64,000 bases of DNA from Stegostoma tigrinum. Its lineage: Eukaryota. This document shows positions 8,296-52,829 of the stretch, piece after piece. Every line of letters starts with the position of its first letter. Position 1 is the first letter of the stretch. Under the pieces are notes generated by a model, which was not told the origin of the DNA, made no database searches, and was given only the letters and a program-made list of their open reading frames with translations. Both the position numbers and the translations under genes were made by a program. The stretch covers positions 67,812,517 through 67,876,516 of the forward strand of contig NC_081363.1 in the NCBI RefSeq assembly GCF_030684315.1, read 5' to 3'.

Positions 8296-9953
8296 GGGTG
8301 GGGATGGAAAAATAGCTTGGGTGGTGGGGGTGGCCATGGGTACCCGCATGGGCCCAAGCTACGCCTGCCTCTTTGTAGGTTACGTGGAACAGTTCCTCTT
8401 CAGCACCTACACAGGCCCCAAACCCTACCTCTTCCTCCGTTACATTGATGACTGTATCGGCGCCGCCACTTGCTCCCCAGAGGAGCTCGAACAGATCATC
8501 CACTTTACCAATACCTTCCACCCCAACCTCAAGCTCACCTGGGCCATCTCCAACACATCCCTCACCTTCCTGGACCTCTCAGTCTCCATCTCAGGTAACC
8601 AGCTAGAAACTGATGTCCATTTCAAGCCCACTGACTCCCACAGCTACCTAGAATACACCTCCTCCCACCCACCCTCCTGCAAAAATTCCATCCCCCATTC
8701 CCAATTCCTCCACCTCCGCCGCATTCTGCTCCCAGGATGAGGCATTCCACTCCCGCACATCCCAGATGTCCAAGTTCTTCAAGGACCGCAACTTTCCCCC
8801 CCACAGTGGTCGAGAACGCCCTTGACTGCGTCTCCCGCATTTCCCGCAACACATCCCTCACACCCTGCCCTTGCACAACCGCCCCCAGAGGATCACCCTC
8901 ATTCTCACATACCACCCCACCAACATCTGGATACAACGTATCATCCTCCGGCACTTCCGCCATCTACAATCCGACCCCACCACCCAAGCTATTTTTCCAT
9001 CCCCACCCCTGTCTGCCTTCCGGAGAGACCACGCTCTCCGCGACTCCCTTGTCCGCTCCACACTGCCCTCCAACCCCACCACACCCTGCACCTTCCCCTG
9101 CAACTGCAGGAAGTGTTACACTTGCCCCCACACCTCCTCCCTCACCCCTATCCCAGGCCCCAAGATGATCTTCCATATCAAGCAGATGTTCACCTGCACA
9201 TCTGCCAATATGGTATACTGTATCCATTGTACCTGGTGTGGCTTCCTCTACATTGGGGAAACCAAGCGGAGGCTTGGGGACTGCTTTGCAGAACACCTCT
9301 GCTCGGTTCGCAATAAACAACTGCACCTCCCAGGTGCGAACCACTTCAACTCCCCCTCCCATTCCTCGGACGACATGTCCATCATGGACCTCCTGCAGTG
9401 CCACAATGATGCCACCCGAAGGTTGCAGGAACAGCAACTCATATTCCGCTTGGGAACTCTGCAGCCTAATGGTATCAATGTGGACTTCACAAGCTTCAAA
9501 ATCTCCCCTTCCCCCACTGCATCCCAAAGCCAGCCTAGTTTATCCCCTCCCCCCACTGCATCACAAAGCCAGCCCAGCCTGTCTCCGCTTCCCTAACCTG
9601 TTCTTCCTCTCACCTATCCCTTCCTCCCACCTCAAGCCACACCTCCATTTCCTATCTACCACCTCATCCCGCCTCCTTGACCTGTCCATCTTCCCTGGAC
9701 TCACCTATCCCCTCCCTACCTCCTCACTTATACTCTCCTCTCTACCTATCTTGTTTTCTCTCCATCTTCGGTCCGCCTCCCCCTCTCTCCCTATTTATTC
9801 CAGTGCCCTCGCCCCATCCCCATCTGATGAAGGGCCTAGGTGCAAGACGTCAGCTTTTGTGCTCCTGAGATGCTGCTTGGCCTGCTGTCTTCATCCAGCT
9901 CCACACTTTGTTATCTTGGATTCTCCAGCATCTGCAGTTCCCATTATCACTGA
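8296..9953 (+). mobile_element. 5'-truncated Penelope-like element (Neptune type) with pLTR and tail
   Basis: RT motifs GVAMGTRMGPSYA and YIDD; Cys linker CNCRKCYTC; GIY-YIG NMVYCIHC..C.FLYIGET; 3' pLTR with decayed hammerhead (CTGATGAAGGG at 9824) and tail ending CCCATTATCACTGA. Confidence 0.93.
8321..9596 (+). pseudogene. Frameshifted PLE RT and GIY-YIG endonuclease ORF
   Basis: ORFs 8321-8740 (RT, YIDD) and 8871-9596 (GIY-YIG) correspond to the continuous ORF at 50022-51326. Confidence 0.88.
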
Positions 9954-11350
9954 AACGTCATCGCCTTTTTGGGCTGAACTGGGCTACATTTTTGTTGTGA
10001 ATTTTAGTCTCTAACTTTAACTTCAAAGGTAGAAACACAACTTTCACTTGAATGTTCTAAAATAATAAATCAACTTTTGAATTTGTTTTAAATCTGTTAA
10101 TCTGGGCAAGTAGTTTAAGCAGCAGATCTAAGATTGTTTGCAGGTAATTGGAAAGAGAGATGCTTGGTAGCCCACATTTTGTAATTAGGCCTTGATTAGA
10201 TGTGGTATTTTTGGCATATGCTTTTATGATTATTTAAACATTTTCCTGTTTCTTTTTCCTCCCCACTTTGCAGTATTTTTGCCAATGACAAGGGTGGCTT
10301 TGGCAACTCCAAAAGCCTTTGGTACTAGTAAGAAAATCCCCTGGGCTGCTCTTGTATTTATATTGCAGAGCACTGATTTACACTAGCACTGAATGCATGC
10401 AATGTAGATTGAAACTTAGCAGAACACATACCACGTCAGCGCATGATAGAGTGACATAGCTGGGATATTGCACACTTTAAAGTTATTGTAACCTCAGTTC
10501 TCCACATCGATGGCAGCATTAAAAAACACATATCTATACATCCATCAAAGTCACACAAGCCTCTGAGAGTTGGACTTTGAAACGCTAAATGAGGAAACAC
10601 AGGCTTGTGGTACCTGATTTATTTACCTGACATTATTTGACACCTATGTTACATGCTTTGGAATGAGTAGAGATGGAATGAAAATTACCACACTGATTCG
10701 GAGCATTTCATAATTTTAAGGGATTTAATGTACATTAATGTATTTCAGCAGGAATCAAATGAGGCATACATCAGAATCTCAAAGAACTTGTGAAGCACCT
10801 GCAATAATCACAAGCAAATATCTAAACTACTTTTCTGGTTTATTTTGGAAAAACACATTTAGTAGGAATGTCTTTCTTTCACATATGTCCCACAATAATG
10901 TCTTTTACTGCCCGTCATACACTGCATAAGCAATTAACCTGTTTTAACAGCTTGCTTAAAGAAAATAACATACCAAGAAACTTAGATTTTTAACATTTCA
11001 GTTAAATTGAAAATGCAATTTCAATTCCAGGAATACACGTATTCATTCATTTATGTGTACTCTGTCCAAAGGTAGGCCCATTCAGTAGCTGACTGCTGTG
11101 AAAAGGGAACATGGCTTTCCTTTCTCTGACAGTTCTGCATGACAATTTTATTTTAAAATTTGCATGAGTTTGCCACTCTTCAGAAAATTTGACCTATTGA
11201 TCTTACTGTATATCCAAACTGACACAAGCATCTTTGGCTTGAGTTAAGATTCACACAACAGGATTCCAGACTACATCTTTTTGCTGATTTGTTGGTACAT
11301 CCATGAGTGACACATCAGGGCCAATAGATAAAGGAATCCTTACAGGTACA

Positions 11351-11440
11351 TGATAACAAAGTGTGGAGGTGGATGAACACAGCAGGCCAAGCAGCATCTC
11401 AGGAGCACAAAAGCTGACGATTTGGGCCTCGACCGTTCAC
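11351..11440 (-). mobile_element. Single-arm PLE pLTR mini-insertion ending inside the hammerhead motif
   Basis: Reverse complement of the pLTR 3' end, stopping at ...GACCGTTCA; flanked by GGTACAT repeats (11344-11350 and 11442-11448). Confidence 0.8.
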
Positions 11441-11825
11441 GGGTACATATCAGGTGTATTGTGAGTGTAAGCCTGGTCAACATATTACAAAAAGGAAAGA
11501 TACACTTATGGGTCAGATGTCTGCAGCTCAAACATTTGAAGCTAGACATTGGTGTGAAAGAAAGAAACTGTGCATAATTGCATTAAAGAAGACTAGAAAA
11601 AACATCCTATTGACTTATTCAAATATCCTGAAGGAAACCAATATTCTAATCCTTAAAAATGATTGGGTCACAACAACGTAAAGCATGGGAACAACTTCAT
11701 ATCAAGTAAGAAAAATGAAAAAAATCATGTATTGCTACTTCTTGTAAAGGGCACTGAATGTATGCAATTCATGCGGAAAGATGAAGCAACTAAGATGTTA
11801 GCATGGACAAACTTAATAGTGAACT

Positions 11826-12044
11826 GAGATAATGGGAACTGCAGATGCTGGAGAATTCAAGATGATAAAATGTGAGGCTGGATGAACACAGCAGGCCAAG
11901 CAGCATCTCAGGAGCACAAAAGCTGACGTTTCGGGCCTAGACCCTTCATCAGAGGATGAAGGGTCTAGGCCCGAAACGTCAGCTTTTGTGCTCCTGAGAT
12001 GCTACTTGGCCTGCTGTGTTTATCCAGCCTCACATTTTATCATC
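11826..12044. mobile_element. Palindromic PLE mini-element (hammerhead plus pLTR end, fold-back)
   Basis: Inverted arms meet at CTTCATCAGAG/GATGAAG (~11953); 17-bp TSD CTTAATAGTGAACTGAG at 11812-11828 and 12044-12060, overlapping the termini. Confidence 0.92.
11923..11954 (-). ncRNA. Minimal type I hammerhead ribozyme motif
   Basis: Minus strand reads CT-CTGATGA-A-GGGTCTAGGCCC-GAAA-CGTC-AG; intact core. Confidence 0.65.
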
Positions 12045-12219
12045 TTAATAGTGAACTGAGCAAGTTTTCGTGAGAAAATTAGTTCAGAATTGTAAACCTT
12101 TAAGTATATATTCTGTTAGTGGACTCCAGATTGTGTTCGAAAGATTGAAGTCAACACTAATTTAAGTAAAAAATGAATAGTATAATCCATCTAAAATCAC
12201 ATAGGATGCAAATGCATAG

Positions 12220-14330
12220 ATGGAATGTCCCAAGGACTCCATGCCAAAGCCAATTCTGGTGTTCCCCAACCAGCAACCTTGGTTGAACCGGGAAATCCAT
12301 TGCCTACTAAAGGCCAGGCATGCAGCATTCAAGCCAGACAACCTAGGCCTAGAAAATCCAGATATGACCTTTGCAAAGCCATTAGGGATACCAATAGATA
12401 GTACTGGACCAAGTTAGAGGCCCAAACCAACCAAATGGACGCCTGCCACCACCTTCAACAGCACCTAAACAACAGGATACAAAATGAAGCAGAGCAAAAT
12501 AGTAGACAAAAACACTTCCCTCGCTGATGCACTCAGAGCTTTCTATGCCCAGTTTGAGTAGAAGGCTAGTGGAATGGTGTCACCTGTCCCAACAGCTCAG
12601 GACTCACCTATTCCCTCTATCACCCTGCAGATATCAGATCAATCTTCTTGACAGTCAACCCAAGAAATCAATAGGCCAGGACAATGTCCCTGGCCATGCA
12701 CTTAAACCCTGTGTGGACCAGCTGGCAGAGGTATTCACTGACATCTTCAGCTTCTCCCTCCTGCAAGCCAATGTCCCCACCTGCTTCAAGAAGACCACCA
12801 TCATCCCAGTACAGAGAAAGTATGTGCAACTTGGCTTAATGACTACCACTCAGTGGCTCTGACCTCCATAATCATGGAGTTCTTTGAGAGGTTGTTCATG
12901 GCCTACATCAACACAAGCCTCCTAGCCTGCCTCGATCCCTTATAGTGGATGACAAGCGGATGCCACTTCCCAAGCCCTCCACTCATCCCTGGAATATCTG
13001 GACTTATCAACTACAGCTCTGCCTTCACCACCATAATGGCCTCCAGACTGATCTCAAAACTCCAAAACCTAGGTCTTGGTTCTGCCTTCTGCATCTGCAT
13101 AGACGGAAATCAGTGAAGATGGACAACTGTACATCTTCTACAATAACCTCAACATTGGAGCACCCCCACGGATGCATTCTCCCTGTACACTCACGACTGT
13201 GTGGCCAAATTCCAAATGAATGCTAAATGCAAATTTGCTGATGACACTTCTGTGATAGAATGAATATCAAACAATGATGTGTTAAAATACAGGAAAGAGA
13301 TAGAGGGCTAGTTGTCATGGTGTTGTGATAACAACCTTTCTCCCAATGTCAGCAAAACAAAACAACTGATCATTGACTTCGGAAAGAAAAGAGGAGGACA
13401 CACTCCCATCTACATCAACAGACCAAAGATTGGGAGTGTTGAGAGCATCAAGTTCCTAGGGTGCTAACCTATCCTGGATTTCCTACATAGATGTACCAGT
13501 CAAAAAGGCACAATGATGCCTCTTCGTCCACAGGTGGTTTAGGAAATTTGATATGTCCATAACCTTTACAGATGCATCATAGAAAGCATAATGTCTGCAT
13601 AATGGTCTGGTACAGCAACTGCACTGCCCAGGAGCATAAGAAACTATGGAATGTTGTGTGTTCAGCCCAGATCATCACAGAAGCCAACCACCCATCTATG
13701 GAATCCATTTATACTTCTCACCGCTATGGAAAGGCGGTCAACATTATCAAAGACCCCTCCCACCTCAATAATCCTCACCTACAACCTCTTCCATCAGACA
13801 AAAGATACAGAATTGAACACTGGTTCAAGAACAGCTTCCAACCTTCCGTAATTAGACTGAAGAATGGACTCTAACTTCAAATAATGCTGATCCTGTTAAT
13901 GCTGTTTCAGAGATAGTAGGAACTGCAGATGTTGGAGAATCTGACATAACAAGGTGTAGAGCTGGATAAACACAATAGGCCAAGCAGCATCAGAGGAGCA
14001 GGAAGGCTGACGTTTTAGGCCTCGACCCATCTTCAGAAAAATCTTTCAGAAAATTTTCTGAAGAAGGGTCTACGCCTGAAACGTCAGCCTTCCTGCTCCT
14101 CTGATGCTGCTTGGCCTGCTGTGTTCATCCAGCTCTACACCTTGTTAGCCTTGTTAATGCTGATCTTGCTTCACACGTCTTCTGCGCAATGTAATCTGTA
14201 TGCCTCACTGTGTCTAAGCACCCTATCATCTGTATGTTCTTGCTTAATACGATTTGCATGTACTGCTTACAAAAAAAATCTTTTCACTGTACTTAGGTAC
14301 ATGTGACTACAACAAATCAAATCAAATCAA
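12220..14330 (+). mobile_element. Rex1/Babar-type non-LTR retrotransposon, 5'-truncated and decayed
   Basis: FPNQQPWLN motif; ALKPCVDQLAEVFTDIFSFSLLQANVPTCFKKTTIIPV; KFADDT; 3' end TTTTCACTGTACTTAGGTACATGTGAC followed by (CAAAT)n. Confidence 0.85.
13905..14147. mobile_element. Palindromic PLE mini-element, CTGAAGA subfamily, inserted in Rex1
   Basis: Inverted arms meet at CTTCAGAAAA...TTTTCTGAAG; TSD TGTTAATGCTG at 13894-13904 and 14152-14162. Confidence 0.9.
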
Positions 14331-17894: not shown

Positions 17895-18398
17895 GGGAAC
17901 CCTGCAGCCTAATGGTATCAATGTGGACTTCACCAGTTTCAAAATCTCCCCTTCCCCCACCGCATCCCTAAACCAGCCCAGTTCGTCCCCTCCCCCCACT
18001 GCACCACACAACCAGCCCAGCTCTTCCCCTCCACCCACTGCATCCCAAAACCAGTCCAACCTGTTTCTGCCTCCTTAACCTGTTCTTCCTCTCACCCATC
18101 CCTTCCTCCCACCCCAAGCCGCACCCCCATCTACCTACTAACCTCATCCCACCTCCTTGACCTGTCCGTCTTCCCTGAACTGACCTATCCCCTCCCTACC
18201 TCCCCACCTATACTCTCTCCACCTATCTTCTTTTCTCTCCATCTTCGGTCCGCCTCCCCCTCTCTCCCTATTTATTTCAGAACCCTCACTCCATCCCCCT
18301 CTCTGATGAAGGGTCTAGGCCCGAAACGTCAGCTTTTGTGCTCCTGAGATGCTGCTGGGCCTGCTGTGTTCATCCAGCCTCACATTTTATTATCTTGG
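17895..18398 (+). mobile_element. PLE 3' fragment (end of GIY-YIG ORF and pLTR, no tail)
   Basis: Near-identical to 51143-51640. Confidence 0.92.
18301..18332 (+). ncRNA. Minimal type I hammerhead ribozyme motif in PLE pLTR
   Basis: CT-CTGATGA(18303-18309)-A-GGGTCTAGGCCC (stem II)-GAAA-CGTC-AG; predicted cleavage after 18330; palindromic ACGT stem III. Confidence 0.68.
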
Positions 18399-19914
18399 AT
18401 ACAGAATTGGCAGTCCAATCAAAGACAGCGGGTGGTAGTGTATGGAAAGTATTCAGCCTGGAGCTTGGTGACCAGTGGTGTTCCACAGAGATCTGTTCTG
18501 GAACCTCTGCTCTTTGTGATCTTTATAAATGGCTTGGATGAGAAAGTGGAAGGGTGCGTTAGTAAGTTTGCCAATGGGACTAAGGTTGGTGGAGTTGTGG
18601 ACAGTGTGGAGGGCTTTTGTAGGTTGCCATGGAACATTGACAGGGTGCAGAGCTGGGCACAGAAGTGGCAGATGGAATTCATACCAGAAAAATATAAAGT
18701 GGTTCATTTTGGAAGGTCAAGTGTGAATGCAGAATACAGGGTTAGTGGCAGGATTCTCGGCAGTGGGGAGGGTCAAAGGGATCTTGGGGTCCATGTCCAT
18801 AGATTCCTCAAAGCTGCCACCCAAGTTGATAGGGTTGTTAAGAAGGCACATGGTGTGTTGGCTTTCATTGGCAGAGGAATTGAGTTTAAGAGTCATGAGG
18901 TTATACTGCAGCTCTACAAAACTCTGGTTAAACCACAATTGGAATATTTTGTTCAGTTCTGGTCACCTCATTATAGGAAAGATGTTGAAGCTTTAGAGAG
19001 GGTGCAGAGGACATTTACCGGGGTGCTGCCTGGACTGGAGGGCAGGTCTTATGGCAAAAGCTTGAGGGAGCCAGTGCTTTTCTCATTGGAGTCAAGAAGG
19101 ATGAGAGGTGATTTGATAGTGGTGTAAAGATGATGAGAGGCAGAGATAGAGTGGATAGTTAGAGACTTTTCCCAGGGCGGAAATGACTATTATGAGGGGG
19201 CATAATTTAAATGTGATTGGAGGAAAGTAAACAGGAGATTTCAGAAGTAGGTTCTTTATGCAGAAAGTGGTGCGTGTGTGGAATGCGCTGCCGGCAGTGG
19301 TAGTGGAGTCAGATGTTTAGAGATGTTTAATCGACTCTTGGACAGGCACAAGGAGGATAGTAAAATAAAGAGTATGTATGGTAGATTGATCTTAGTAGGA
19401 TTATAGGTCAGCACAACATTGTGGGCCAAAGGGCCTGCACTCTGCTGTACTGTTCAATGTTCTATGTTCTAATGTCCATCAAGCCCTCACCTCACCCATT
19501 CCTCATTCAAGCCTAAACCACAAACTATTAGTTTCTAACACAGATCCCATATTTTATTACATTTAATTAATCAAATTTAAGTAATTCAATATGACAGAAA
19601 TCTTTGCCTGTTACATCAGGAGGGAATCCAGGGAAAACAAACAGAAGCTTGCAAATAATGCAGTAAAATTAGCAGCATGATTACTCTTGGCCATCTCTGA
19701 TCATCTTCCGGTGATTGGAACAGCCGTGTTGAAAGAGGTTTGCCACTTTTCGCAAGAAATACTACATAATCTGAATGACCTAAAAGGACTGACAATTTAG
19801 AGTTCAGAATGTAAAATAAAGTGAAATCAATGGTTTTAAAATAGCGAAAGGGTAATTGTGATCCTGCTTTATTCACTTGTATTAATTTGACCAATCCTAC
19901 TCTATCTAAATGCA

Positions 19915-20945
19915 AAAGAGCTGACGTTTTGGGCCTAGACCGTCCATCAGAAAAGGGCGATGAGGAGAGGGTTCTGAAATAAATAGGGAGAGGGGGGAGG
20001 TGGACCGAAAATGGATAGAGGAGAAGATAGGTGGAGAGGACAGTACAGGTGGGGAGGTAGGGAGGGGATAGGTCAGTCCAGGGAGAATGGACAGGTCAAG
20101 GGGGTGGGATGAGGTTAGTAGGTAGGAAATGGAGGTGCTGCTTGAGGTGGGAGGAGAGTAGAGGTGAGAAGAAGAACAGGTTAGGGAGGCGGAGACAGGC
20201 TGGGCTGGTTTTGGGATGCGGGAGGGGGAGGGGAGATTTTGAAGCTTGTGAAATCCACATTAATATCATTGTGCTGTAGGGTTCCCAAGCAGAATATGAG
20301 TTGCTGTTCCTGCAACCTTTGGATGGCATCATTATGGCACTGCAGGAGGCCCAGGATGGATATGTCGTCTAAGGAATGGGAGGGGGAGTTAAAATGGTTT
20401 GCGACTCTGAGGTGCAGTTGTTTCCTGCAAACCGAGCGGAGGTGTTCTGCAAAGCAGTCCCCAAGCCTCCACTTGGTTTCCCCAATGTAGAGGAAGCCAC
20501 ACCGGGTACAGTGGATGCAGTATATCACATTGGCAGATGTGCAAGTGAATATCTGCTTGATATGGAAAGTCATCTTGGGGCCTGGGATGAGGGTGAGGGA
20601 GGAGGTGTGGGGGCAAGTGTAGCATTTCCTGCGGTTGCAGGGGAAGGTGCCGGGTGTAGTGGGGTTGGAGGGCAGTGTGGAGTGGACAAGGGAGTCCCGG
20701 AGAGAGAGGTCTCCCCGGAAAGCAGACAAGGGTGGGGATGGGAAAATGCCTTTGGTGGTGGGGTCAGATTGTAGGTGGCGGAAGTGTCAGAGGATGATGC
20801 GTTGTATCCGGAGGTTGGTGGGGTGGTATGTGAGGACGAGGGGGACTCTCTTTTGGTGGTTATTGCGGGGATGAGGTGTGAGGGATGAATTATGGGAAAT
20901 GTGGTCGACACAGTCGAGGGTGTTCTCGACCATTGAGTGGGGGAG
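19915..20945 (-). mobile_element. PLE 3' fragment (GIY-YIG and partial pLTR)
   Basis: ORF 20181-20729 reads GTFPCNRRKCYTC...NVIYCIHCTRCGFLYIGETK. Confidence 0.92.
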
Positions 20946-20949
20946 GGGT

Positions 20950-21926
20950 ATCTGACCCCACCACCAAAGACTTTTTTCCCTCCCCACCCTTATCTGCTTT
21001 CTGGAGGGACCACTCTCTCCATGACACCCTTGTCCACTCCACATTCCCCTCCAACCCCACCACACCCGGCACTTTCCCCTGCAACTGCAGGAAGTGCTAC
21101 ACTTGCCCCCACACCTCCCCCCTCACCCCCAACCCAGGCCCCAAGATGAATTTCCATATCAAGGAGATGTTCACCTGCACATCTGCTAATGTGGCATACA
21201 GTATCCACTGTTCTCTTTGTGGCCTCCTCTACATTGAAGGCTTCGGGACCCTTTGCAGAACACCTACACTCGGTTCACAATAAACAACTGCACCTCCCAG
21301 CCGCGAACCATTTCCACTCCCCCTCACATTCTTTAGATGACATGTCCATCATGGGCCTCCTACAGTGCCACAATGATGCCACCCGAAAGTTGCAGGAACA
21401 GCAACTCATATTCCGCTTGGGAGCCCTGCAGCCCAATGGTATCAATGTGGACTTCACCAGCTTCAAAATCTCCCCTTCCCCTACTGCGTCCCAAAACCAG
21501 CCCAGTTCGTCCCCTCCCCCTACTGCACCACACAACCAGCCCATCTCTTCCCCTCCACCCACTGCATCCCAAAACCAGCCCAGCCTGTCTCTGCCTCCCT
21601 AACCTGTTCTTCCTCTCACCCATCCCTTCCTCCCACCCCAAGCCGCACCTCCATTTCCTACCTACTAACCTCATCCCACCTCCTTGACCTGTCCGTCTTC
21701 CCTGGACTGACCTATCCCCTCCCTACCTCCCCACCTATACTCTCCTCTCCACCTATCTTTTTTTCTCTCCATCTTTGGTCCGCCTCCCCCTCTCCCCCTA
21801 TTTATTCCAGAACCCTCACCAAATCCCCCTCTCTGATGAAGGGTCTCGGCCCGAAACGTCAGCTTTTGTGCTCCTGAGATGCTGCTGGGCCTGCTGTGTT
21901 CATCCAGCCTCACATTTTATTATCTT
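20950..21926 (+). mobile_element. PLE 3' fragment (GIY-YIG and pLTR, no tail), head-to-head with the previous fragment
   Basis: ORFs 20885-21283 and 21189-21602; hammerhead motif at 21833-21860. Confidence 0.92.
21831..21862 (+). ncRNA. Minimal hammerhead ribozyme motif in PLE pLTR
   Basis: CT-CTGATGA-A-GGGTCTCGGCCC-GAAA-CGTC-AG. Confidence 0.65.
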
Positions 21927-22660
21927 GTATCCATTTGTGACCTACTTTTGCAGTCTTCACAACTGACTTTTCTACCTGTATTTGTGTCATCAGTAAATTT
22001 AGCAGCCACACCTATGGTTCCTTCATTCAACAGATTTATAAAGATTGGAAAAAGTTGAGGTTCCAGCACTGTTCCCTCTGGCACCTCACTTATTGAGTCT
22101 TGCCAACCAGAATAAGATCCATTTGTGGTTACTCTCTGGTTTGTGGCAGATGCCCAATCTTCTATTTGTGATGATTTGTTTCCCCCGACAACATGAGTCT
22201 TAAATTCTGCATTATCTTGGACGTGGGAATTTATCAAATGCTCTCGGAGAGCTATGCACAGCAAATCCACTAGTTTGCATTTACTTCCATCACATGTTAC
22301 TTCTTTAATGAACTCCAATAAATTGGTTAAATCCATTCACAAATCTATGTTGACTCTGCTTGATTACCTCGAACTTTTTTAAGTTCTTTGCTATTTTGTA
22401 TTTAATAGTAGCTTCTGGCAATTTCCCCTGTGTCAGATATTAAACTAACTGCCCTATAGGTTCTTGCTTACGGTCTCCCTCACTTTTTGAATAAAGAAGT
22501 TACATCCATTGTCTTTCAAACTGATGAAACCTTCTCTGAACTTAGGAAATTTTTGAAAAATGTAACACAACAAATAATTCACTGTCCATCTCTTTTTAGA
22601 CCCTATAATGAAGTTCGTCAGAATCTGGGGACTCGCCACTATGCAATTGCAACAATACCT
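21927..22660 (-). mobile_element. Old CR1 LINE RT fragment
   Basis: ORF 21920-22336 reads LTNLLEF...VPEGTVLEPQLFPIFIN...KFTDDT. Confidence 0.8.
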
Positions 22661-22781: not shown

Positions 22782-23444
22782 AGTGAAGCCCATTTCCAAA
22801 CTTGGTGTAACAGATTTTATGTAAACTTTTCTCTCTGCAGTTGAATTAGGTTGAAAGGGTTGTTTTCTTTGAGATTCAAGTAACTATGAGATTTAATTGT
22901 AGTGCAAAAATTATGAACAGTCCAGGTAGAGTCGAAACTAAAGATCTTATTTCGTCACCAGTGAGAGACAATACTGGGGCCTTTGATTGGATCCACTAAA
23001 AGGGAGGATTATTCGAGGATGAAGCGAGATTTTATTTCACCCAAAGTCCAAGAGTTTTATATGGCTGAATGGGACATGGAGGGAGACTTGTTTACCACTT
23101 TTAAAAAATGCTTCTATAAATGCTTGCAGTATCATATCCTACAAGGCAACAGGCCAAAACCTGAATTGTGGGATGAGGCTGGATAGTTTTGTCTGGCAGG
23201 AACATGATGGGCCTAATGACTTCTGCAAGCCAAATTCCTTTATGCTATGCAATAAAAAACTTTATTTCTTGCATGATACTAGGATATGTTGGAATCTTTA
23301 TGTTCCAATTTATAGTTTTGATTACTGAATAATAGCTTGTAAGTGCTTTCAGTTAAGATACATGTTCATAGAGCTATTTGGCCATGAGAATACATTCAGC
23401 ATTCATGGCTGAATTGCCAATAGCTGGCAGTAGTTAATTTTTGA

Positions 23445-23663
23445 ATAACAAGGTGTAGAGCTGGATGAACACAGCAGGCTAAGCAGCATCAGAGGAGCAG
23501 GAAGGCTGACATTTTGGGCCGAGACCCTTCTTCAGAAGAAGGGTCTAGGCTCAAAACGTCAGCCTTCCTGCTCCTCTGATGCTGCTTGGCCAGCTGTTTT
23601 CATCCAGCTCTACACCTTGTTATCTCAGATTCTCCAGCATCTGCAGTTCCTACTATCTCTGAT
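23445..23663. mobile_element. Palindromic PLE mini-element, CTGAAGA subfamily
   Basis: Apex CCCTTCTTCAGAAGAAGGG (~23534); GTAGTTAATT repeated at 23430-23439 and 23664-23673. Confidence 0.9.
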
Positions 23664-25274
23664 GTAGTTAATTATTATTCCTTTTGTAATCAGTGCTAAG
23701 TCCTGGATAGAATAGGATGTCATGCAGGCCGACAAGCTCTGCTTAAGTCAAAAACAAGGAATGTTTTACCAGAACCAAAGAAAAACAAAGAATGATATAC
23801 ATTCATACTCCCCCATTGTCAATTTGATTAACTCCAATAAATTAGAGGACATTTTGTTCTCTAGAACCACCTATTGCAATTGAGGTTGTACAATTGATGT
23901 TTCTCTCAATTATAAAAATACATAGCCAAAACTCAAGTCCTGGCATTTCACTCTCTATTAAAGAAACTATAAAGTGTGTACACTTGGAATACGTGGCAAT
24001 GAACATACATGGGCACAAGACATACTGAATAAGAGAATTTTTGGTTGGAAATACTGTTGGTGTCTTTACATGAGCGATAATTCCATTCATCAGCTCAGGC
24101 ACGACAGCTTCTGCTGACTTGTGCTCCCTAGAAACTATAGCACTGTTTTGGCAATTATATGTATGACCAAGATATTCAAATATTGGGAACTAGTTGTTAG
24201 GCTGTGGATGCATTATGGGAAGTACTTAAGATTGGGTTTCAAACCCTCACAATGTAAGGCTATTATTGGCAAGGTATTGATATCAAAGGATTGGGTCTAT
24301 CTTGATTCCAAATTGTTCAGAGACCCGGTTGAGATCAAAATTGAATGGACAAAGATGGTAGGGTCACAGATTGGGGGGGAAACAGGGAAGTTTATTGGTA
24401 ACTTAGTGATTCTTCTTTTGGACTATTGGACTCTTTCATGGTAAACTTTAAGGGCATGTGTTTGGATCAGGAATTGTCACAACAGTTTCATGTTTGAGCA
24501 TGTTATTTTGCTGGAATGTGATTGGCTAGCTCCTGTGTTTGCATTGCAAATTTATGGATTTTTAAATGAGATATTTGAAATGGGAAGAAAATTTAGCACA
24601 GTTATTTATAATAGTGAACAAAAAATAGCCATTGAAAAGTTAGGAATGCACAAAGGTTACCAACTTAATCAATGACAACTCAAAAGATTTACTGCAGGTT
24701 TAATAAGGAGACGAAACAGTCAAAATGTTATAAATACAGAATTGGACGTAAAAGCAAGGTGACCTTAACTGTCTATATTTTTAGAGTACTATATATTGTG
24801 GCAATGTCAGCCTTTTGTTGTTCAAGAAGAAGGAATAATTTAATGCTGCAATGCTGGGATGCAGCAGTCACTCTTACTTAATGCTGTTTTTCGTTTACAT
24901 GGAAAAACAATAAGTAACCTGCATCTGATTAAAGATCAACATGGTGCTCCAGCACGGCTGAAAGTTATCATCCCCTTCCGTTTCCAATCTTTGGGTCAGA
25001 GAAAGTTTGACGACTGACCAACATCTGTCTTCAATGAATGTATACAGTTTAACCTGAATACTGATTCACTGTTTGGAAACTGAAATAATGAAAAATAATA
25101 TTAATGCCCAAAAATACAATAAAGGCACTGTGGTAGATTTTGAATTTGAGCAATATTATATAAGAAGGGTAACAGCAAATCAGTGACCCCTTTCTAGCTG
25201 TCCTTGAAGCTAATGGAAATAAATATCAGAGGAGATAGAAAATGGGTTGTCAATTTACTTTCAAGATTAGAATT

Positions 25275-25790: not shown

Positions 25791-25946
25791 CAGACTCAAT
25801 GGGACAAATGGCCTCTTTCTGCACAGCAGGGATCCTGTCAGTGCCATGATTTTTTTTTGCACAGTCAGAAAGTACTTGGCATTTCTGCACCATTTGTTTC
25901 TTCTTTTTTCGAGAATTATTTGCCAAGCCACATATAGCAATGCTTT

Positions 25947-26165
25947 GGTGATAATGGGAACTGCAGATGCTGGAGAATCCAAGATAATAAAATGTGAGGC
26001 TGGATGAACACAGCAGGCCCAGCAGCATCTCAGGAGCACAAAAGCTGACGTTTCGGGCCTAGACCCTTCATCAGAGATGAAGGGTCTAGGCCCGAAACGT
26101 CAGCTTTTGTGCTCCTGAGATGCTGCTGGGCCTGCTGTGCTCATCCGGCCTCACATTTTATTATC
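25947..26165. mobile_element. Palindromic PLE mini-element, CTGATGA subfamily
   Basis: Apex CTTCATCAGAGATGAAG (~26075); 14-bp TSD TATAGCAATGCTTT at 25933-25946 and 26166-26179. Confidence 0.93.
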
Positions 26166-26210
26166 TATAGCAATGCTTTCTGCAGTTATGTATAATATCA
26201 GGAAGCACTC

Positions 26211-26525
26211 TGAAACAAAAACAAAAATTGCTGGAAAAACTCAGCAAACCTGGCAGCAAAAGATTGGTCTATACGTTGATATGGGGGCAAGAGTAAACAA
26301 AAACTTTTATTTAGGAAATGAACATATGACAGCTACTGACTTCAATTTTAACGTAATGGATTAATATGAAACATTGATCTTTTCCTAGGTACAATCAATC
26401 TTAAAGAAGGATCACTGAACCTAAAATGTTAACTCTGCTTACTGTCCACACATGCTGCCAGATTTGCTGAGTTTCTCAAACTATTTCCGATTTTGTTTCT
26501 GGCTTCCAGCATCCACAGTTCTTTG
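26211..26525. mobile_element. Older PLE pLTR family, inverted remnant
   Basis: 26211-26258 is approximately the reverse complement of 26453-26500; decayed hammerhead-like AAGAAGGATCACTGAACCTAAAATGTTAACTC at ~26404. Confidence 0.6.
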
Positions 26526-27429: not shown

Positions 27430-28380
27430 ATGAGGAGTATTCTTGCAACAAAGCTGTCATCAGTTTCCTCCATCATAAGGTCAGCAGTGGGGATGTTCAC
27501 CGATGATTGTACAATATTCAGCACCATTCACGATTTTTCAGATATTGAAACAGTCCATGTTTAAATGCAACAAGACCTGAATGATGTCAAGCTTAGATTG
27601 ACAAGTGGCAAGTAACTTTCATGCCACACAAGCAATCCTCACTGGGCATTCAATGGCATTACCATCGCTGAAATTTCCACTATTATTATCTTGAGAGTTA
27701 CTATTGACCAGAAACAGAGCTGAACTAGATGTATAGATACCATGTGTACAAGAGTAGGTCAAAGGATAGGAATGCTGCAGCAAGGAACTCATCTCTTGAT
27801 TTCCCAAAGCCTGTCCACAAGACAGGAGTGTGATGGAATACTCCCAACATGCCTGTTTGAGTGCAGCTCCAAGAACACTCAATAAATTACTGTAATTTTC
27901 AGCAGGTCTGGCAGTATCTTTGGACAGAAATCAGAGTTAACATTTCAGGTTGCGTGATCCTTCCTCAGAACTTGGCCCAAAACATTAACTTGGATTTCTC
28001 TGCACAAATACTGCCAGGCTTGCTAAGCTTTTCCAGCAATATCTATTTTTGTTTTTGATTTACAACACTCAAAAAACTTGACACCATCCAAGACAAAGCA
28101 TCACAACCATAAACATTCATTCCCTCCACAACCAGTGTTCGGCAGCAACTGTGAGTACCATTTACAAAATGCACTGCAGAAATTCACCACAGTTTCTGGG
28201 CAGTACCTTCCAAACCCAAAACCACTTCCATATAGAAAGACAAAGGCAACAGATACCTGGGAACTCTACCATCTGTAAATTCCTCTCCAAACACACACCA
28301 TCCTGACTCGGAAATATATCTCTGTTCCTTCACTGTCACTGGGTTAAAATCCTGGAATTCCTTCCCTACCGGCAATATGG
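27430..28380 (+). mobile_element. CR1/L2-group LINE 3' portion
   Basis: Translates to GMFTDDC, QQDL..., DKWQVTF, RSVMEYS; tail shared with 30580-31220. Confidence 0.75.
27883..28063. mobile_element. Palindromic mini-element of the older PLE family, inserted in a LINE
   Basis: Diverged inverted arms meet at ~27972; minus-strand hammerhead AGTT-CTGAGGA-AGG..CCT-GAAA-TGTT-AACT; TSD AACACTCAA at 27874-27882 and 28064-28072. Confidence 0.75.
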
Positions 28381-31754: not shown

Positions 31755-32673
31755 AGGGATGCACAGAGAGATCTGGATGTTCAGGTTCAATGTACCCTTA
31801 AGGTTGCAAGGTGGGTCAATAGAGTGGTTAAGAAGGCCTATAGCATGCTTTCCTTCATTGGATGGGGTACTGAGTACAAGAGTTGGCAGGTCATGTTCCA
31901 GTTGTATAGGACTTTGGTTTGACCACACCTGGAATACTGCATACAGTTCTGGTTGCCACATCACCAAAAGGATGTGGATGCTTTGGAGAGGGTGCTGAGG
32001 AGGTTCACCAGGATAACAAAGTGTGGAGCTGGATGAACACAGCAGGCCAAGCAGCATCTTAGGACGACAAAAGCTGACGTTTCGAGGCTGAAGGGTCTAG
32101 GCCCGAAACGTCAGCTTTTGTACTCCTAAGATGCTGCTTGGCCTACCGTGTTCATTCAGCTCCACACTTTGTTATCTCGGACTCTCCAGCATCTGAGTTC
32201 CCACTATCTCTAGGTTCACCAGGATGTTACCTGGAATGGAGGGTGCTAGCTATGAAGAGAGGTTGAGTAGATTAGGATTATTTACATTAGAAAGACGGAG
32301 GTTGAGGGGGGACCTGATTGAGGTTTACAAAATCCTGGGAGATATAGACAGGGTGGATAGCAAGAAGCTTTTTCCCAGAGTGGGGACTCAATTACTAGGG
32401 GTCATGATTTCAAGGTGAGAGGGAAAGAGTTTAAGGGACATATGTGTGGAAAGTTCTTTACACCGAGGATGGTGGGCATCTGGAACGCGTTGCTAGCAGA
32501 GGTGATAGAGGCAGGCATGATAGAATCATTTAAGATGTATGTAGACAGATACATGAATGGGCAGGGAGCAGAGGGATACAGATCCTTGGATTAGATAGAG
32601 AATCTGGATCGGTGCAGGCTTGGAGGTCCAAAGGGCCTTTTCCTGTGCTCTAATTGTCTTTGTTCTTTGTTCT
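31755..32673 (+). mobile_element. Younger CR1 3' fragment, interrupted by a PLE hairpin
   Basis: ORF 32224-32418 reads LPGMEGASYEERLSRLGLFTLERRRLRGDLIEVYKI; tail (TTTGTTC)n; same subfamily as 54600-55325. Confidence 0.9.
32012..32211. mobile_element. Palindromic PLE mini-element
   Basis: Arms meet at GACGTTTCGAGGC/TGAAGGG (~32087); 14-bp TSD AGGTTCACCAGGAT at 32001-32014 and 32212-32225. Confidence 0.92.
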
Positions 32674-33192
32674 TAGTGTTTAAATAAATACTACAAAGTT
32701 TAAAACATTACTCACTAGTACAAACTGAAAGGTAATGTGACAATGGTTAAAGAAAGAATTTAAAAATTGCACTCGATCAAAGAAATAATTTCATAAGATT
32801 GTCAGAAAAAGCAGTAAACCTCAGGATTGGGAGCAATTCAGAACCTAATAAAAGAAACTAAAAAGCAAAAGGAAATGCCAATATGAGTGCAGGCTAGTGA
32901 GGAACATCAAGGCAGATTGTAAAAGTAATCAATATTTGGCCCCATTACAGGTGGGGATGAGAGAATTTATTATGAAGAACAGGGAAATTGTGGAGAAAAT
33001 AAATAGTAACTTGTAATCAGTTTTCACATAAAAAATACATACAGAGAACTCTCAGAAATATTAGGAATCAAGGAACTTGTGTTGGTGAAGAACTAAAATA
33101 AATTAGTAGAGTAGTAGTACTTGAACAATTAGCTGGATTGAGGGTTGATAAATCTCCTTCACCAGTTCATCCCACAGTGTTGAAGGAAGTAA

Positions 33193-37864: not shown

Positions 37865-38212
37865 TTTATTCATTAATAGGATGAGGACATCACTGGCTAG
37901 GCAGTGTTTATTGTCCATCCCTAATTGCCCAGCAGGCAGTTCAAAGTCAAACATATTGCTGTAGGCCTGGAGTCACATGTAGGCCAGACCAGGTAAGAAT
38001 GGCAGTTTCCTTCCCTAAAGGACATTAGTGAACCGGGTGAGTTTTTATTTTGACAATTGATTCATGATCATCATTAGATTTTTAGGTCCTAATATTTTAT
38101 TGAATTCAAATTCCATCTGCTGTGGTGGGATTTAGAACCTGGACCCCACAGAATGTTACCTGAGTCTCAGGATTAACAGTCCAGCAGCAATACCACTAGG
38201 CCACCACCTCTC
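37865..38212 (-). mobile_element. tRNA-derived SINE (family of 60193-60715)
   Basis: Reverse complement is collinear with 60193-60715; head GGTGGCCTAGTGGTATTGCTGCTGGACTGTTAATCC. Confidence 0.82.
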
Positions 38213-40279
38213 CTGTAGTAGTCTTAACTTCACTTACTTGCCTATAACCCTTGACTCCCTTTCCAGCAACAATCTGCTTAACTCTGATTTCCCTGCCATG
38301 TATACAAATTAACTTGATTTAACTGCTTCTCTGTTTATTTGAAAAATGTCTTTTCATTCTGGCCCTTCAGCTCTGCTGCATTCCCTTCCCTACATAGACA
38401 CAGCCTCCTTTGCCAGCTGTCGCTACCTGTGCAGTCCCCAAACACCTCATATTGAACATTCATATGTTTCTGGCTGGCGAAAGGAAACTACACTTGTGCC
38501 AATTCTAAATAATCAAACTGCTTGTCTGATTTTGCATGATGTCAAATAACTCCTCATTCACTGGCTAACTCCAAGTTTATCTCTCAGGAAATTAATATCA
38601 ATATCCATGGGAAGCCGCAAAGGATTTATCTTAGTAATATGGGAATAAAAGAAGGAGGTTATTCTTCCCTTTGTGTCTGTGCTGGCTCTCTGCAAGAGCA
38701 AAATCATGATGGGCAAAGAAGAGTCCAACCTATTTCTAGAAAAAGAGTGTCTGCCTGGGAACATTTTGCCACCCATAATTCTGTTTCATGTCTTTCCTTA
38801 ACACTGAACTTATCATATGTTATTCTCTTCTAGTATTTTGTCTCACTTTGAAATGTGGGTCAGCTTCTGTCTGTCCTGGTACATCCCGTGGCTGCTTATT
38901 CTACATTTTGCAAGTTGTTTGTATCTTAAACACTCTCAATGGCAGGAAAAAAAAGTGACCAGACTGCAAGGGAGCTTTTGTGACGTGCTCAGCAGACATT
39001 CTCAATACTAGATCCATTACATTCAGAAAGCTTACAATGTAACTTGGTGAGCATTTAACATAGGATTAATTTGATCAAGTTACATCCATATACTCATAGC
39101 TTTTCCCCTTTATAACTAATTGCATTGCTTACGTCCCATTAGTTCAGTTCTTTAAAAACAAATGAACATGGACATTTTTTACATCATGAAACAAATAATT
39201 TCTCAAACAGATACTGGTGAAATATTTAAAATCCAATCTACTTGGACATGTTTTAAACTCTAAGGTGTCTGATTCAACAATGAACTTGTTTTCAGCTGTT
39301 CTGAAATTCTACTTTCTCCATTCAATATGAATAGTGTTCTGTTTAGTCAAAGATGCCTTAGCTCTTTGTACAATGCCTCACTGTGTGCAAGTCTGTTAAC
39401 AGCTATACGATACTCCCAGATGTACTTTTACTGGCCACAAGATCCATTTTGATGCCAAATATTGAAAGATTGTATATTTCTTCTGCATGTTTTTGCAAAT
39501 TCCTCACACAGCCAAATATGCATACAAGTAATTTTATACACAGTTCACATTTGGTGCTTTAAAAATGTATTCACTTCTAATATGTTTTAAAGGTGGTTAC
39601 TTGAATGAATTAACACATGAAAAATTCATACACGATAATATACGTTGATTACTGGAAAACTAGGTTAAATTTGACAGCTCAGGCAACTTTTGTGGAAGGT
39701 GGGAAAACTATCAAAGATAATTATTTGTCCGATATATAAACCACCAGTTCCTTAAAATCAACTCTATCATGTGCTTCTTTTAGCAAAAAGATCAGATTGA
39801 AAGTGAAGTTGCAGAGTTAAATGTTAAACTATTTTCACATGAAGCCTGAGGATTAGTTGTTGAATACCAGGAGTGCCAATACCATGGTGAGGCCACATCA
39901 TATTGCTCTGCCTGTAGCTTCTGTTTGGATTTGTTTCTGCAACTTTACTTTGCAGCCTTTTAATGATATGATCTTATTGAGGATATTTGTCTTTATTTCT
40001 GCTGCACGGTCAGTTTGAGGACAGGAAGGAACACGGAACAGATTGAAGTCTTGGTTACCCTGCCATGGATGCATATTTCAAAGAAAAAGTACATATTTAT
40101 ACAGTACTCATTGTAAACAATAAGATATCTCAGGAAACTTGGCTTGCACATAAACGTTAAAACCTTTGGCAGTGGAGTCAGTGGTTCAGAACAGAGTCAA
40201 TGGGCATAAAAATGATTAAAGGAGAGGGTCTTTAAAGAAAGGCTTGAAGCGGTTGATAGTTACATGTTGTATTTATATT

Positions 40280-47877: not shown

Positions 47878-48899
47878 ATGTATTGGAGGGTGGTAAATGT
47901 TATTCCACTGTGGAAGATAGGGAATAAGGATAATCCTGGGAATTTCAGATCAGTCAGTCTTACTTCTGTAGTGGGCAAATTATTGGAGAGGATTCTGGGA
48001 GGTAGCATTTATGATTATTTGGAAAAGAACAGTTTGATTCGAGACAGTCAGCACCGCTTTGTGAGGGGCAGATCATGCCTCACAAGTCTTATTGAATTCT
48101 TTGAAGATGTGACAAAATACATTGACGAAGGTAGAGCAGTGGATGTGGTCTATATAGATTTTAGCAAGGCATTCGATAAGGTTCCTCATGGTAGGCTCAT
48201 TTAGAAAGTAAGGAGGCATGAGATCCATAGAAATTTGGCTGTCTGGATACAGAATTGGCAGTCCAATAGAAGATAGAGGGTGGTAGAGTATGGAAAGTAT
48301 TCAACCTGGAGCTCAGTGACGAGTGGTGTTCTGCAGGGATCTGTTCTGGAACCTCTGCTCTTTGTGATCTTTATAAATGGCTAGGATGAGAAAGTGGAAG
48401 GATGGTTTAGTAAGTTTGCCGATGGAACTAAGGTTGGTGGAGTTGTGAAGGGTGTGGAGGGCTGTTGTTGGTTGCAACAGGACATTGCCAAGATACAGAG
48501 CTGGGCAAAGAAGTGGCAGATGGAATTAAACCCAGAAAAGTGTGAAGTGGTTTATTTTGGGAGGTCAAATTTGAATGCAGAATACAGGGTTCATGGCAGG
48601 ATTCTCAGCAGTGTGGAGGAACAGAGGGATCTTGGGGTCCATGTCCATACATCCCTCAAAGCTGCCACCCAAGTTGATAGGGTTGTAAAGAAGGCATATG
48701 GTGTGTTGGCTTTCATTGACAGGGGAATTGAGTTTAAGAGCTGCGGGGCTATGATGCAGATGTATAAAACCCTGATTAGACCACACTTAGAATATTGTAT
48801 CAGAGATAATAGGAACTGCAGATGCTGGAGAATCCAAGATAATGAAATGTGAGGCTGGATGAACACAGCAGGCCAAGCAGCATCTCAGGAGCACAAAAG

Positions 48900-48931
48900 C
48901 TGACGTTTCGGGCCTAGACCCTTCATCAGAG
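48900..48931 (-). ncRNA. Minimal hammerhead ribozyme motif in PLE pLTR
   Basis: Minus strand reads CT-CTGATGA-A-GGGTCTAGGCCC-GAAA-CGTC-AG. Confidence 0.65.
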
Positions 48932-49133
48932 AGGGGGATGGGGTGAGGGTTCTGGAATAAATAGGGAGAGAGGGGGAGGCAGACCGAAGGTGGAGAGAGT
49001 ATAGGTGGGGAGGTAGGGAGGGGATAGGTCAGTCCAGGGAAGACGGACAGGTCAAGGAGGTGGGATGAGGTTAGTAGGTAGATGGGGGTGCGGCTTGGGG
49101 TGGGAGGAAGGGATGGGTGAGAGGAAGAGCCGG

Positions 49134-49850
49134 TTAGGGAGGCAGAGACAGGTTGGATTGGTTTTGGGATGCAGTGGGTGGAGGGGAAGAGCTGGGCTGG
49201 TTTAGGGATGCAGTTGGGGAAGGGGAGATTTTGAAACTGGTGAAGTCCACATTGATACCATTAGGCTGCAGGGTTCCCAGGCGGAATATGAGTTGCTGTT
49301 CCTGCAACCTTCGGGTGGCATCATTGTGGCACTGCAGGAGGCCCATGATGGACATGTCATCTAAAGAATGGGAGGGGGAGTGGAAATGGTTTGCGACTGG
49401 GAGGTGCAGTTGTTTATTGCGAACCGAGTGGAGGTGTTCTGCAAAGCGGTCTCCAAGCCTCCGCTTGGTTTCCCCAATGTAGAGGAAGCCACACCGGGTA
49501 CAGTGGATGCAGTATACCACATTGGCAGATGTGCAGGTGAACATCTGCTTGATGTGGAATGCCATCTTGGGGCCTGGGATAGGGGTGAGGGAGGAGGTGT
49601 GGGGGCAAGTGTAGCATTTCCTGCGGTTGCAGGGGAAGGTGCCGGGTGTGGTGGGGTTAGAGGGCAGTGTGGAGCGAACAAGGGAGTCATGGAGAGAGTG
49701 GTCTCTCCGGAAAGCAGACAGGGGAGGGGATGGAAAAATGTCTTGGGTGGTGGGGTCGGATTGTAGATGGGGGAAGTGTGGAGGATGATGCGTTGTATCC
49801 GGAGGTTGGTGGGGTGGTGTGTGAGAACGAGGGGGATCCTCTTTGGGCGG
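49134..49850 (-). pseudogene. PLE GIY-YIG endonuclease fragment (inverted arm)
   Basis: ORF 49134-49874 reads GTFPCNRRKCYTC...NVVYCIHCTRCGFLYIGETKRR. Confidence 0.88.
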
Positions 49851-50021
49851 TTCCGAGACACCTGCATTCTGCATGCAGATGGCCTCAAGGCCCTCCGCTT
49901 CTTCCTGTCCCGCAGGCCCGACCAGTCCCCCTCCACCGACACCCTCATCCGCCTAGCCGAACTCGTTCTCACCCTCAACAACTTCTCTTTTGACTCCTCC
50001 CACTTCCTATAGACTAAGGGG

Positions 50022-51326: not shown

Positions 51327-52829
51327 CCTGTTCTTCCTCTCACCCATCCCTTCCTCCCACCCCAAGCCGCACCCCCATCTACCTACTAACCTCATCCCAC
51401 CTCCTTGACCTGTCCGTCTTCCCTGGACTGACCTATCCCCTCCCTACCTCCCCACCTATACTCTCTCCACCTATCTTCTTTTCTCTCCATCTTCGGTCTG
51501 CCTCCCCCTCTCTCCCTATTTATTCCAGAACCCTCACCCCATCCCCCTCTCTGATGAAGGGTCTAGGCCCGAAATGTCAGCTTTTGTGCTCCTGAGATGC
51601 TGCTTGGCCTGCTGTGTTCATCCAGCCTCACATTTTATTAACTTAGAATATTGTGTTCAGTTCTGGTCGCCTCATTATAGGGAGATGTGGCAGCTTTAGA
51701 GAGAGAGCGGAAGAAATTTAGCAGGATGCTGCCTGGCCTGGAGGGCAGGTCTAATTAGAAAAGTTTGTGGGAGCTAGGTCTTTTCTCATTGGAATGAAGA
51801 CAGATGAGAGTTGGCTTGATAGTGATGTAAAGATGATGAGAGGCATTAATAGAGTGGATAGTCAGAGACTTTTTCCCACAGCGGAAATGACTATTACAAG
51901 GGGGCGTAATTTAAAGGCGATTGAAGGAAGGTATAGAGGAGATGTCAGAGATAGCTTCTTTACACAGAGAGTGGTGGGTTCGTGGAATGCACGGTCAGCG
52001 GTTGTGTTGGAGCCAAATACAACAGAGACATTTAAGCGACTCTTGGATAGGCACGTGGAGGATAGTAAAATGTAGTGTACACAGGGTAGTTTGATCTTAG
52101 AGTCGGTTAATAGATCAGCACAACATCATGGGCCAAACGGCCTGTACTGTGCTGTGCTCTCCTGTGTTATATGTTCTATAAAAACATAGAACAAATTTAC
52201 AAAACTTGCTGAATGGATACATAAATTGCAAGTTAATTTGAATATGGTTGAAAATAAAGTGGCGCAGGCTGGTAGAAGGGTTCAGAAAGCTCTAAAATCA
52301 TTAGGGAGTAAGATTCCAACATTAACAAAACGGTTGGGAAGCAATAGTGTCGAACAAAAGCCTGAAAGAGTGGGTTTCCGACAGGTCTTCCTGATATCAG
52401 GGCCCCAGCTGGGAATTGTAGGGGAGGGAAAACCAATGACAGGGAGATTAGGGATGAGTAGGCCATTGATTTGTGAGCTCAGATTGGAGGAGGTCATAGA
52501 ATGCCGAAAGAAAATGCAGGTCTTTGGAGGTGACAGGGGACTAGGGGATGAGGACTTTGGAGAACATTGGGAAGGAATTTGATTGAGGTGTGGTGTTGTT
52601 AACATTTTTGCCATGGGAACTGGCGGGGTGATGTGTGTGGGGTAAACTCTGTACTCCCTCCCGACCCATAAACAGTGCTAGAAAAGAATCTGACAGTACC
52701 TGGCAGTTATTGTAACGTCCATATGGCTGCAGAGTTTTCTAATGCCTGGAAAGCTGTCAAACTCATGTCACAACAGAAGGAGAGGTCAAATCTGAGCTAC
52801 TGATAGCTTCAATTTCAGCATTCTGAGAT

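Follow-up and report, generated by a model that had tools for sequence, protein, structure and literature searches.

Short hairpins of a Penelope-like element in Stegostoma tigrinum end at a sharp 5' wall beside a hammerhead core

Six short, noncoding hairpins in one stretch of Stegostoma tigrinum DNA raise the question of why inverted insertions should so often turn beside the core of a hammerhead ribozyme. The initial annotation of this stretch saw two possible answers, a dedicated ~135-nt RNA with an ancestry of its own or a stop or template switch of the reverse transcriptase (RT) at the ribozyme fold. We therefore asked what the hairpins are, where in the genome their arms stop, and which process could account for the boundary.

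Results

Six Hairpin Insertions and Their Parent Element

The window is the whole stretch of 64,000 nt analyzed here (Stegostoma tigrinum contig NC_081363.1, assembly GCF_030684315.1, positions 67,812,517–67,876,516, forward strand). Positions within the element are counted on its sense strand from 0, the C of the hammerhead core CTGA(T/A)GA. All six annotated hairpins were recovered as inverted repeats, with an arm complementarity of 91–98%, and each has its own TSD-like direct repeats, 13–17 bp long in five cases, whose scores are well above those of randomly placed control sites. The repeat of the sixth (10 bp, 1 mismatch) is weak taken alone, since a score of 9 was reached in 5 of 300 random placements (a score of 11 in none). 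For hairpins 5 and 6, both flanks match another repeat in the window with an overlap of 14–15 bp, the equivalent of an empty site. In all six, one arm carries an extra tail (33 nt in hairpin 1) and the other ends at or near TTATC, as had been noticed. The 5' ends given below for each arm are approximate.

Hairpin 1, 11826–12044: tailed arm on the minus strand (11826–11954, 5' end at −2), tail-less arm on the plus strand (11955–12044, from +2); TSD 11812–11828 and 12044–12060, 17 bp, exact.
Hairpin 2, 13905–14147, older subfamily: tailed arm on the minus strand (5' end at −5), tail-less arm on the plus strand (−4), short inserted spacer repeating the apex sequence; TSD 13892–13904 and 14150–14162, 13 bp, 1 mismatch.
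Hairpin 3, 23443–23663, older subfamily: tail-less arm on the minus strand (−1), tailed arm on the plus strand (+2); TSD 23430–23442 and 23664–23676, 13 bp, 1 mismatch.
Hairpin 4, 25947–26165: tailed arm on the minus strand (to −2), tail-less arm on the plus strand (from +2); TSD 25933–25946 and 26166–26179, 14 bp, exact.
Hairpin 5, 32012–32211: apex within the core (tailed arm +4, tail-less arm ~+15); interrupts a repeat that is unbroken at 54604–55324; TSD 32001–32014 and 32212–32225, 14 bp, exact.
Hairpin 6, 60263–60410: tailed arm from ~+67, tail-less arm from ~+15; interrupts a repeat that is unbroken at 37865–38217; TSD 10 bp, 1 mismatch.

The hairpins belong to an abundant Neptune-type Penelope-like element (PLE), among whose insertions they are the shortest. 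They are 95–97% identical to long copies in the window, and their pLTR belongs to an element with RT and GIY-YIG domains. Its other copies and features in the window are as follows.

8326–9956, plus strand: long 5'-truncated tailed copy.
11349–11439, minus strand: solo tail-less arm that starts inside the core.
17895–18400, plus strand: 5'-truncated tail-less copy (to −408).
19912–21930: long inverted pair, its minus-strand arm cut at the 3' end.
48799–51643: long inverted pair with the same architecture as the hairpins; tailed arm on the minus strand (~1.1–1.2 kb), tail-less arm on the plus strand (~1.6 kb); 14-bp direct repeat at its ends (read by eye).
50013–51326, plus strand: 3' part of the PLE ORF, with RT, CX4CX2C linker, and GIY-YIG-type endonuclease.
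51517–51524, plus strand: TATA-like TATTTATT at −34, lying 30 bases 5' of the −4 wall described below; putative promoter element.
51551–51580, plus strand: minimal hammerhead core (0 to +29) of a long copy, with predicted cleavage after +27.
62849–62985, plus strand: solo tailed arm from the wall, older subfamily, 10-bp TSD.

The ORF at 50013–51326 has 90 longer homologues, most of them with the RT domain PF00078, and its GIY-YIG match (E 0.0014) lies under the gathering score. In the Neptune clade, the linker between RT and endonuclease reads CX2-5CxxC (PMC8557442), so that the CX4CX2C linker indicates a Neptune-type PLE, an assignment by a linker motif that is also present in Nematis; a Poseidon-type identity was dropped on account of this motif. 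Where copies stand in tandem, the tail passes into the ORF, and locus L106 has an ATG at +167 that opens a frame of 539 aa, reaching to the locus end and containing a DKG motif. In L106 and L118, residues ~250–300 of the ORF, in its N-terminal part, form a low-complexity repeat tract rich in Pro, Thr, Ala, and Asp, which is variable in length.

By inspection, the core fits the minimal type I hammerhead (PMC4209133), with CUGANGA, a predicted helix II, GAAA, a palindromic loop 3, and UH; helix I has ~2 bp, compared with 4–5 bp in the minimal type I definition, and the predicted monomer favors a noncatalytic stem-loop. An Rfam search of the hairpins matched no hammerhead model and returned weak matches to miRNA models, which we judged to reflect generic hairpins.

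Several PLE insertions in the window have as their targets LINE-like, RT-encoding repeat fragments (18348–19471, 48244–48796, 51643–52178, 54604–55324, and 31759–32675). The window also contains a distant hammerhead-bearing repeat family with inverted arms of its own (47 nt, 83% complementary) at 26212–26499 and 27899–27968, found again at L070:9456–9575, which is probably another PLE. Similar repeats are known from cartilaginous fish.

A Sharp 5' Wall at the Hammerhead Core

Our genome sample consists of 70 segments, each 10 kb long and placed at fixed offsets along large contigs, amounting to 700 kb of 3.2 Gb. The 26 exact core 24-mers in the sample extrapolate to 118,800, compared with a true genome count of 115,535, so the sample looks representative. 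Of 165 sampled arms, 147 were kept (9 were dropped for <80% identity, 4 as tandem units, 3 as cut at the 3' end, and 2 at an edge), and 2 further hairpin mis-extensions were reset by hand. Among the 86 arms that reach position 0, 38 stop in −7 to 0 (5.5% per base) and 2 stop in −50 to −8 (odds ratio 59, p = 4e-21). The stop rate per base is also raised downstream of 0, at 1.4% in +1 to +6 and 0.5–0.9% in +7 to +59; upstream it is 0.16% in −20 to −8, 0.07% in −50 to −21, and ~0.1% beyond. This wall, ~7 bases broad, is present alike in tailed, tail-less, young, and old arms. An alignment artifact of subfamily divergence upstream of the core was considered and rejected, as the wall stays when eleven natural reference copies, from young and old subfamilies, are used.

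Across the whole genome, 31,553 of the 115,535 exact cores are without the reference base at −10, and ~81 of 100 among the matches listed are true breaks; at least about 22% of exact cores genome-wide are broken within 10 bases upstream. The control window from −23 to −11 yields 3,013 cases genome-wide, of which ~14 of 100 among the matches listed are true breaks, giving a break share of roughly 0.5% in these next twelve bases, with ~96,000 cores at risk as estimated from the sample. These tallies of 100 were made by eye on the first matches on contig C1, and the totals are those of the whole genome.

Breakpoints thus show a sharp step in −7 to 0 genome-wide and no smooth spread along the pLTR. 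The suspicion that 5' truncation is not random was right, the pile-up exceeding chance, and so was the placement of the boundary just 5' of the core and not at the GUC cleavage site: the main wall lies ~32 nt upstream of the predicted cut. The related claim that the palindromes turn at the core holds for the boundary, which is indeed at the core, but not for the turn itself, because there is no fixed apex and what is sharp is a limit, or wall, beyond which short arms do not extend. In 30 short pairs, at least one arm ends in −7 to 0 in 19 and both ends lie downstream of 0 in 11; none extends beyond −6, and apex midpoints range from −4 to +65.

Inverted Pairs Have One Tail and Coupled Arm Lengths

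Exactly one arm is tailed in 42 of the 45 inverted pairs of the sample. The modal 3' ends are at +91/+92 and +127/+128, ~36 nt apart, and the one-tail architecture covers arm sizes from 35 bases to >1.5 kb. Arms are short together or long together (30 pairs short/short, 11 long/long, and 4 mixed; p = 4e-7), a pairing that a limit set by the template would predict; we use this table because the Spearman correlation of arm ends is weak (0.35, p = 0.046, 33 pairs). Short pairs number 30 in 0.7 Mb, which extrapolates to ~137,000 genome-wide. Partner arms are nearest neighbors on the arm tree described below in only 7 of 42 comparisons, so that copying of both arms from a shared template is weakly indicated, through 2 shared private alleles in 24 pairs, compared with 0.08 expected.

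Junctions vary between loci, being blunt, microhomologous, or furnished with short copied snippets. Loop-less perfect palindromes are common at self-complementary 4-mers and at −4/−4, and junctions of the older subfamily have A-runs before T-runs. Among the matches listed, the break is followed by G in 71 of 100 at −5 and in ~34 of 100 one base further up (−6), an excess that copying of a cap would fit; in flank-like contexts, G stands at −5 in 14 of 25 (p = 0.002), 9 of these 14 being AG. A cap-derived G was considered as proof of a start site and rejected, as the AG and A-run additions fit palindromic or templated insertion equally. A genome-wide listing includes 21 long copies in which the base at −5 is altered, to G in 7 and to A in 1; this G may mark a variant lineage, or it may be a base added at an end and then fixed through template jumping.

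Hairpins as Products of the PLE Machinery

A dedicated, nonautonomous RNA of ~135 nt, similar to a SINE or a retrozyme, or else a master hairpin, could be mobilized in trans, and the very high copy number of short pairs would suit such a source. In a tree of 84 arms and 91 columns with rough support, from which inner arms and L041 were left out, the wall label changes 23 times, compared with 27.8 when shuffled (23 of 500 shuffles were as low), a slight clustering that includes one weakly supported group of six wall arms from the older subfamily. However, short copies show little sign of forming clades of their own: wall arms and long arms intermix, identical rows occur in both groups, and wall arms belong to young and old subfamilies alike. 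Where a SINE-like family would show its own lineage with fixed ends, we find this intermixed tree together with variable 5' ends and heterogeneous, locus-specific junctions, and where non-LTR retrozymes would show direct tandem units with a hammerhead in each, the hairpins are inverted pairs whose ends do not lie at the cleavage site. One junction does recur in 5 of 12 printed loci, but the query itself contained it, and the idea of a master hairpin drawn from this recurrence was set aside.

The same boundary is found in insertions that carry the body of the element. Eleven of these reach the core of the 5' pLTR, with starts at the wall in four (−4, −2, +3, and −4), at +17 in one, and at −301 or further upstream in six. 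The set is small and comes from 30 loci, excluding tandem arrays and copies truncated further downstream; 5' ends were read for 9 of 40 ORF-bearing matches, and both searches picked near-identical young copies. Insertions can thus start at the wall, from −4 to +3, while carrying the 5' body or as much as 1.4 kb of ORF, and a 135-nt RNA cannot template them, while the 6 of 11 that extend far upstream indicate that read-through RNAs are used too. The boundary being common to ORF-carrying insertions and to stubs, which are without the upstream box discussed below, we consider a dedicated short RNA very improbable, whereas the view of the initial annotation that the PLE machinery makes the hairpins is borne out.

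The Ribozyme Fold and Self-Cleavage

That the wall adjoins the core also invites the idea of RT stalling there on a longer RNA, at the ribozyme fold, a long-range helix, or a bound protein, with the cDNAs being joined at the stall. Arms stop in 44% of cases and pass in 56%, as at a leaky barrier; two RTs stalling together on one RNA would also give paired lengths; and a minor class of junctions (~5 of 100 among the matches listed) fits snap-back via the self-complementarity of the core. The predicted geometry argues otherwise: the monomer stem-loop spans 0 to +29, RT would meet it from the +29 side, and at position 0 it would already be past it. Moreover, the region shows no gain in folding over shuffles (z 0.86 and 0.06), no predicted helix ends at −5 and no long-range helix is predicted there, and a conserved box 30 nt upstream is left unexplained. 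A stop or template switch at the ribozyme fold, as initially proposed, is therefore less likely than it appeared, and we regard stalling near the core in general as improbable.

Self-cleavage of the hammerhead could set the ends more directly, and there is a second hotspot at the predicted cut, where +28 accounts for 39 of 100 breaks in +23 to +34 among the matches listed (8,385 in total) and where several internal-deletion or inversion junctions lie (L112, L117, and L121). It fails as the cause of the main wall, which is far from this site, and the stubs keep an uncleaved core. The +28 peak coincides with both the predicted cleavage site and a self-complementary word, so that the two are confounded: 22–24 of the 39 breaks at +28 among the matches listed are palindromes at self-complementary AGCT, and other self-complementary words are used as well (rough arm counts of ~1,900 at +28, 1,250–1,600 at +12, 700 at +15, and 250 at +23). 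The 9 nonpalindromic breaks at +28 among the matches listed are not clearly above their neighbors (1–12), and hammerhead cleavage was dispensable in vitro (PMC11167929). We find it hardly credible that self-cleavage sets the ends; a rather doubtful suggestion is that, in addition to the cause proposed next, in vivo cleavage by the hammerhead left a genomic trace in the form of the +28 peak.

The Wall as the Probable 5' End of the PLE mRNA

We assign a probability of roughly two in three to the reading that the PLE mRNA has its 5' end at the wall, where two cDNAs primed on opposite target strands would run off and become joined head-to-head. Four features of the genomic copies point to an RNA 5' end: cDNAs that cross the ORF stop at the wall, jumps occur at −4, arm lengths are coupled, and a TATTTAT-type box lies upstream. 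The L133 cDNA, whose outer 5' end is at −4, extends across as much as 1.4 kb of ORF, and both L132 and L133 show mid-ORF sequence attached, with a few bases inserted, to a segment that terminates at −4, which is what run-off followed by template jumping would leave. The box is at −34/−35 in 41 of 53 long arms and at −35/−36 in copies that are 74–83% identical to the query copies. Thirty bases is the usual spacing between TATA and start; TATTTATT also resembles an AU-rich mRNA decay element, and the box could be one. Transcription of D. virilis Penelope initiates within the upstream pLTR, 46 nt ahead of an intron (PMC2377424), and the intron end meets hammerhead helix I (PMC4209133); a putative TATA and Inr have been described in a rotifer pLTR (PMC3846280).

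Under the mRNA-end reading, the PLE mRNA would start inside the upstream pLTR at ~−4, just ahead of the hammerhead core, and its 5' leader would contain, in order, the core, the RT start sites (+92 and ~+128/+130), and the ORF start at +167 (the last as seen in L106). The RT-endonuclease would nick both target strands 10–17 bp apart, the distance given by the observed TSDs, and one cDNA would be primed per target strand, one from each start site, as suggested by the tail rule together with in vitro work on an anole element: one tail in 42 of 45 pairs matches the two RT start sites and the two-strand extension reported there (PMC11167929). Priming at the 5' pLTR copy would leave ~95 or ~135 bases of template, so that both cDNAs would run off the RNA end. 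Their 3' ends would then be trimmed and joined head-to-head by short microhomologies, often with templated snippets, as in the junctions observed, and the joining would favor self-complementary words, perhaps through a polymerase-theta-like pathway. The product would be a promoterless hairpin stub, and priming at the 3' pLTR copy would produce the long inverted pairs. The ribozyme would be found at the apex because it is sited at the mRNA start, not because of cutting there.

How the second arm forms is a separate matter, and one answer compatible with the wall being an RNA end is that a single cDNA folds back at its 3' end and is copied, the endonuclease resolving the second end at +92 or +130. 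Self-priming has been proposed for the palindromic inverted junctions of rotifer PLEs (PMC3846280), as has endonuclease resolution for the tail (PMC8557442), and folding back accounts for the paired lengths and the shared private alleles. Yet loop-less palindromes, which are common, are easier made by annealing two cDNA ends, the longer arm can be either one, and the anole protein uses two start sites in vitro to extend both strands (PMC11167929). We regard folding back of a single cDNA as unlikely, if a serious candidate.

With two cDNAs running off the mRNA end, the process may include a strong-stop-like step, in which twin cDNAs, begun at both start sites of the 5' pLTR, routinely run off the capped mRNA start and then jump templates or join as a hairpin; we place this suggestion slightly short of even odds. 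In LTR elements, minus-strand strong-stop DNA is primed near the RNA 5' end, runs off, and jumps, and in L1 twin priming, two primers lead to an inversion joined by microhomology. Unlike in either case, each of the two target strands would serve here as a primer, at one of two fixed internal sites of the RNA, and one RNA segment would be copied into both arms. If such a step exists, template jumps would build tandems, chimeras, and retrozyme-like units, and the ~10^5 hairpins would constitute a fossil record that maps the start site without RNA.

Discussion

Inverted tailed pLTRs, palindromic junctions, pLTR hammerheads, internal priming, and pLTR-derived tandem retrozymes have all been published (PMC8557442, PMC3846280, PMC4209133, PMC11167929, and PMC7229834). 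In a literature search covering mainly openly accessible texts, we found neither a 5' wall at the core nor a predominance of body-less hairpin stubs described.

[quoted passage not shown] Compared with what is described there, most inverted insertions here are body-less (30 of 45 sampled pairs are short), and their arms have 5' ends at a sharp wall. The protein of the anole Poseidon element PAc, modeled as a dimer, nicks and extends both target strands; as here, two internal RT start sites bound the tail, and hammerhead cleavage of PAc is the activity found dispensable in vitro, but the ORF starts at the hammerhead in PAc and 167 nt after it here, and the consulted text of that report describes neither a 5' wall nor hairpin stubs (PMC11167929). 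Penelope of Adineta vaga shares head-to-head inverted pLTRs, palindromic junctions, and an optional tail, has TSDs of 8–10 bp and the pLTR promoter motifs mentioned above, and differs in having few copies, which were read as self-priming on an antisense template, the available text giving no breakpoint statistics (PMC3846280).

The genome thus provides a large in vivo read-out of PLE integration, in which the rule of one tail per pair is near-strict and agrees with the two start sites observed in vitro, and in which arm lengths are coupled. From its sharp boundary, the transcription start can be predicted with a precision of a few bases, and the pattern bears on PLE integration, on the origin of inverted and tandem structures, and on the role of the hammerhead. 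In addition, ~10^5 near-perfect hairpins of 150–250 bp can pass for MITEs, SINEs, or microRNA precursors.

Like the hairpins, non-LTR retrozymes are noncoding, bear hammerheads, and come from PLE pLTRs, but they are described as direct tandem repeats, whereas the hairpins are single inverted pairs (PMC7229834; bioRxiv 10.64898/2026.07.22.740005). Direct tandem units of ~311–440 bp do occur elsewhere in the genome, composed of the pLTR end, the tail, and the first 100–200 bases of the body, frequently accompanied by an inverted block (L041:7200–8434, L109, L114/L115, L105, and L123). These units match what has been described for PLE-derived non-LTR retrozymes, and further tandem-unit matches lie on contig C11 with a spacing of 315 bp.
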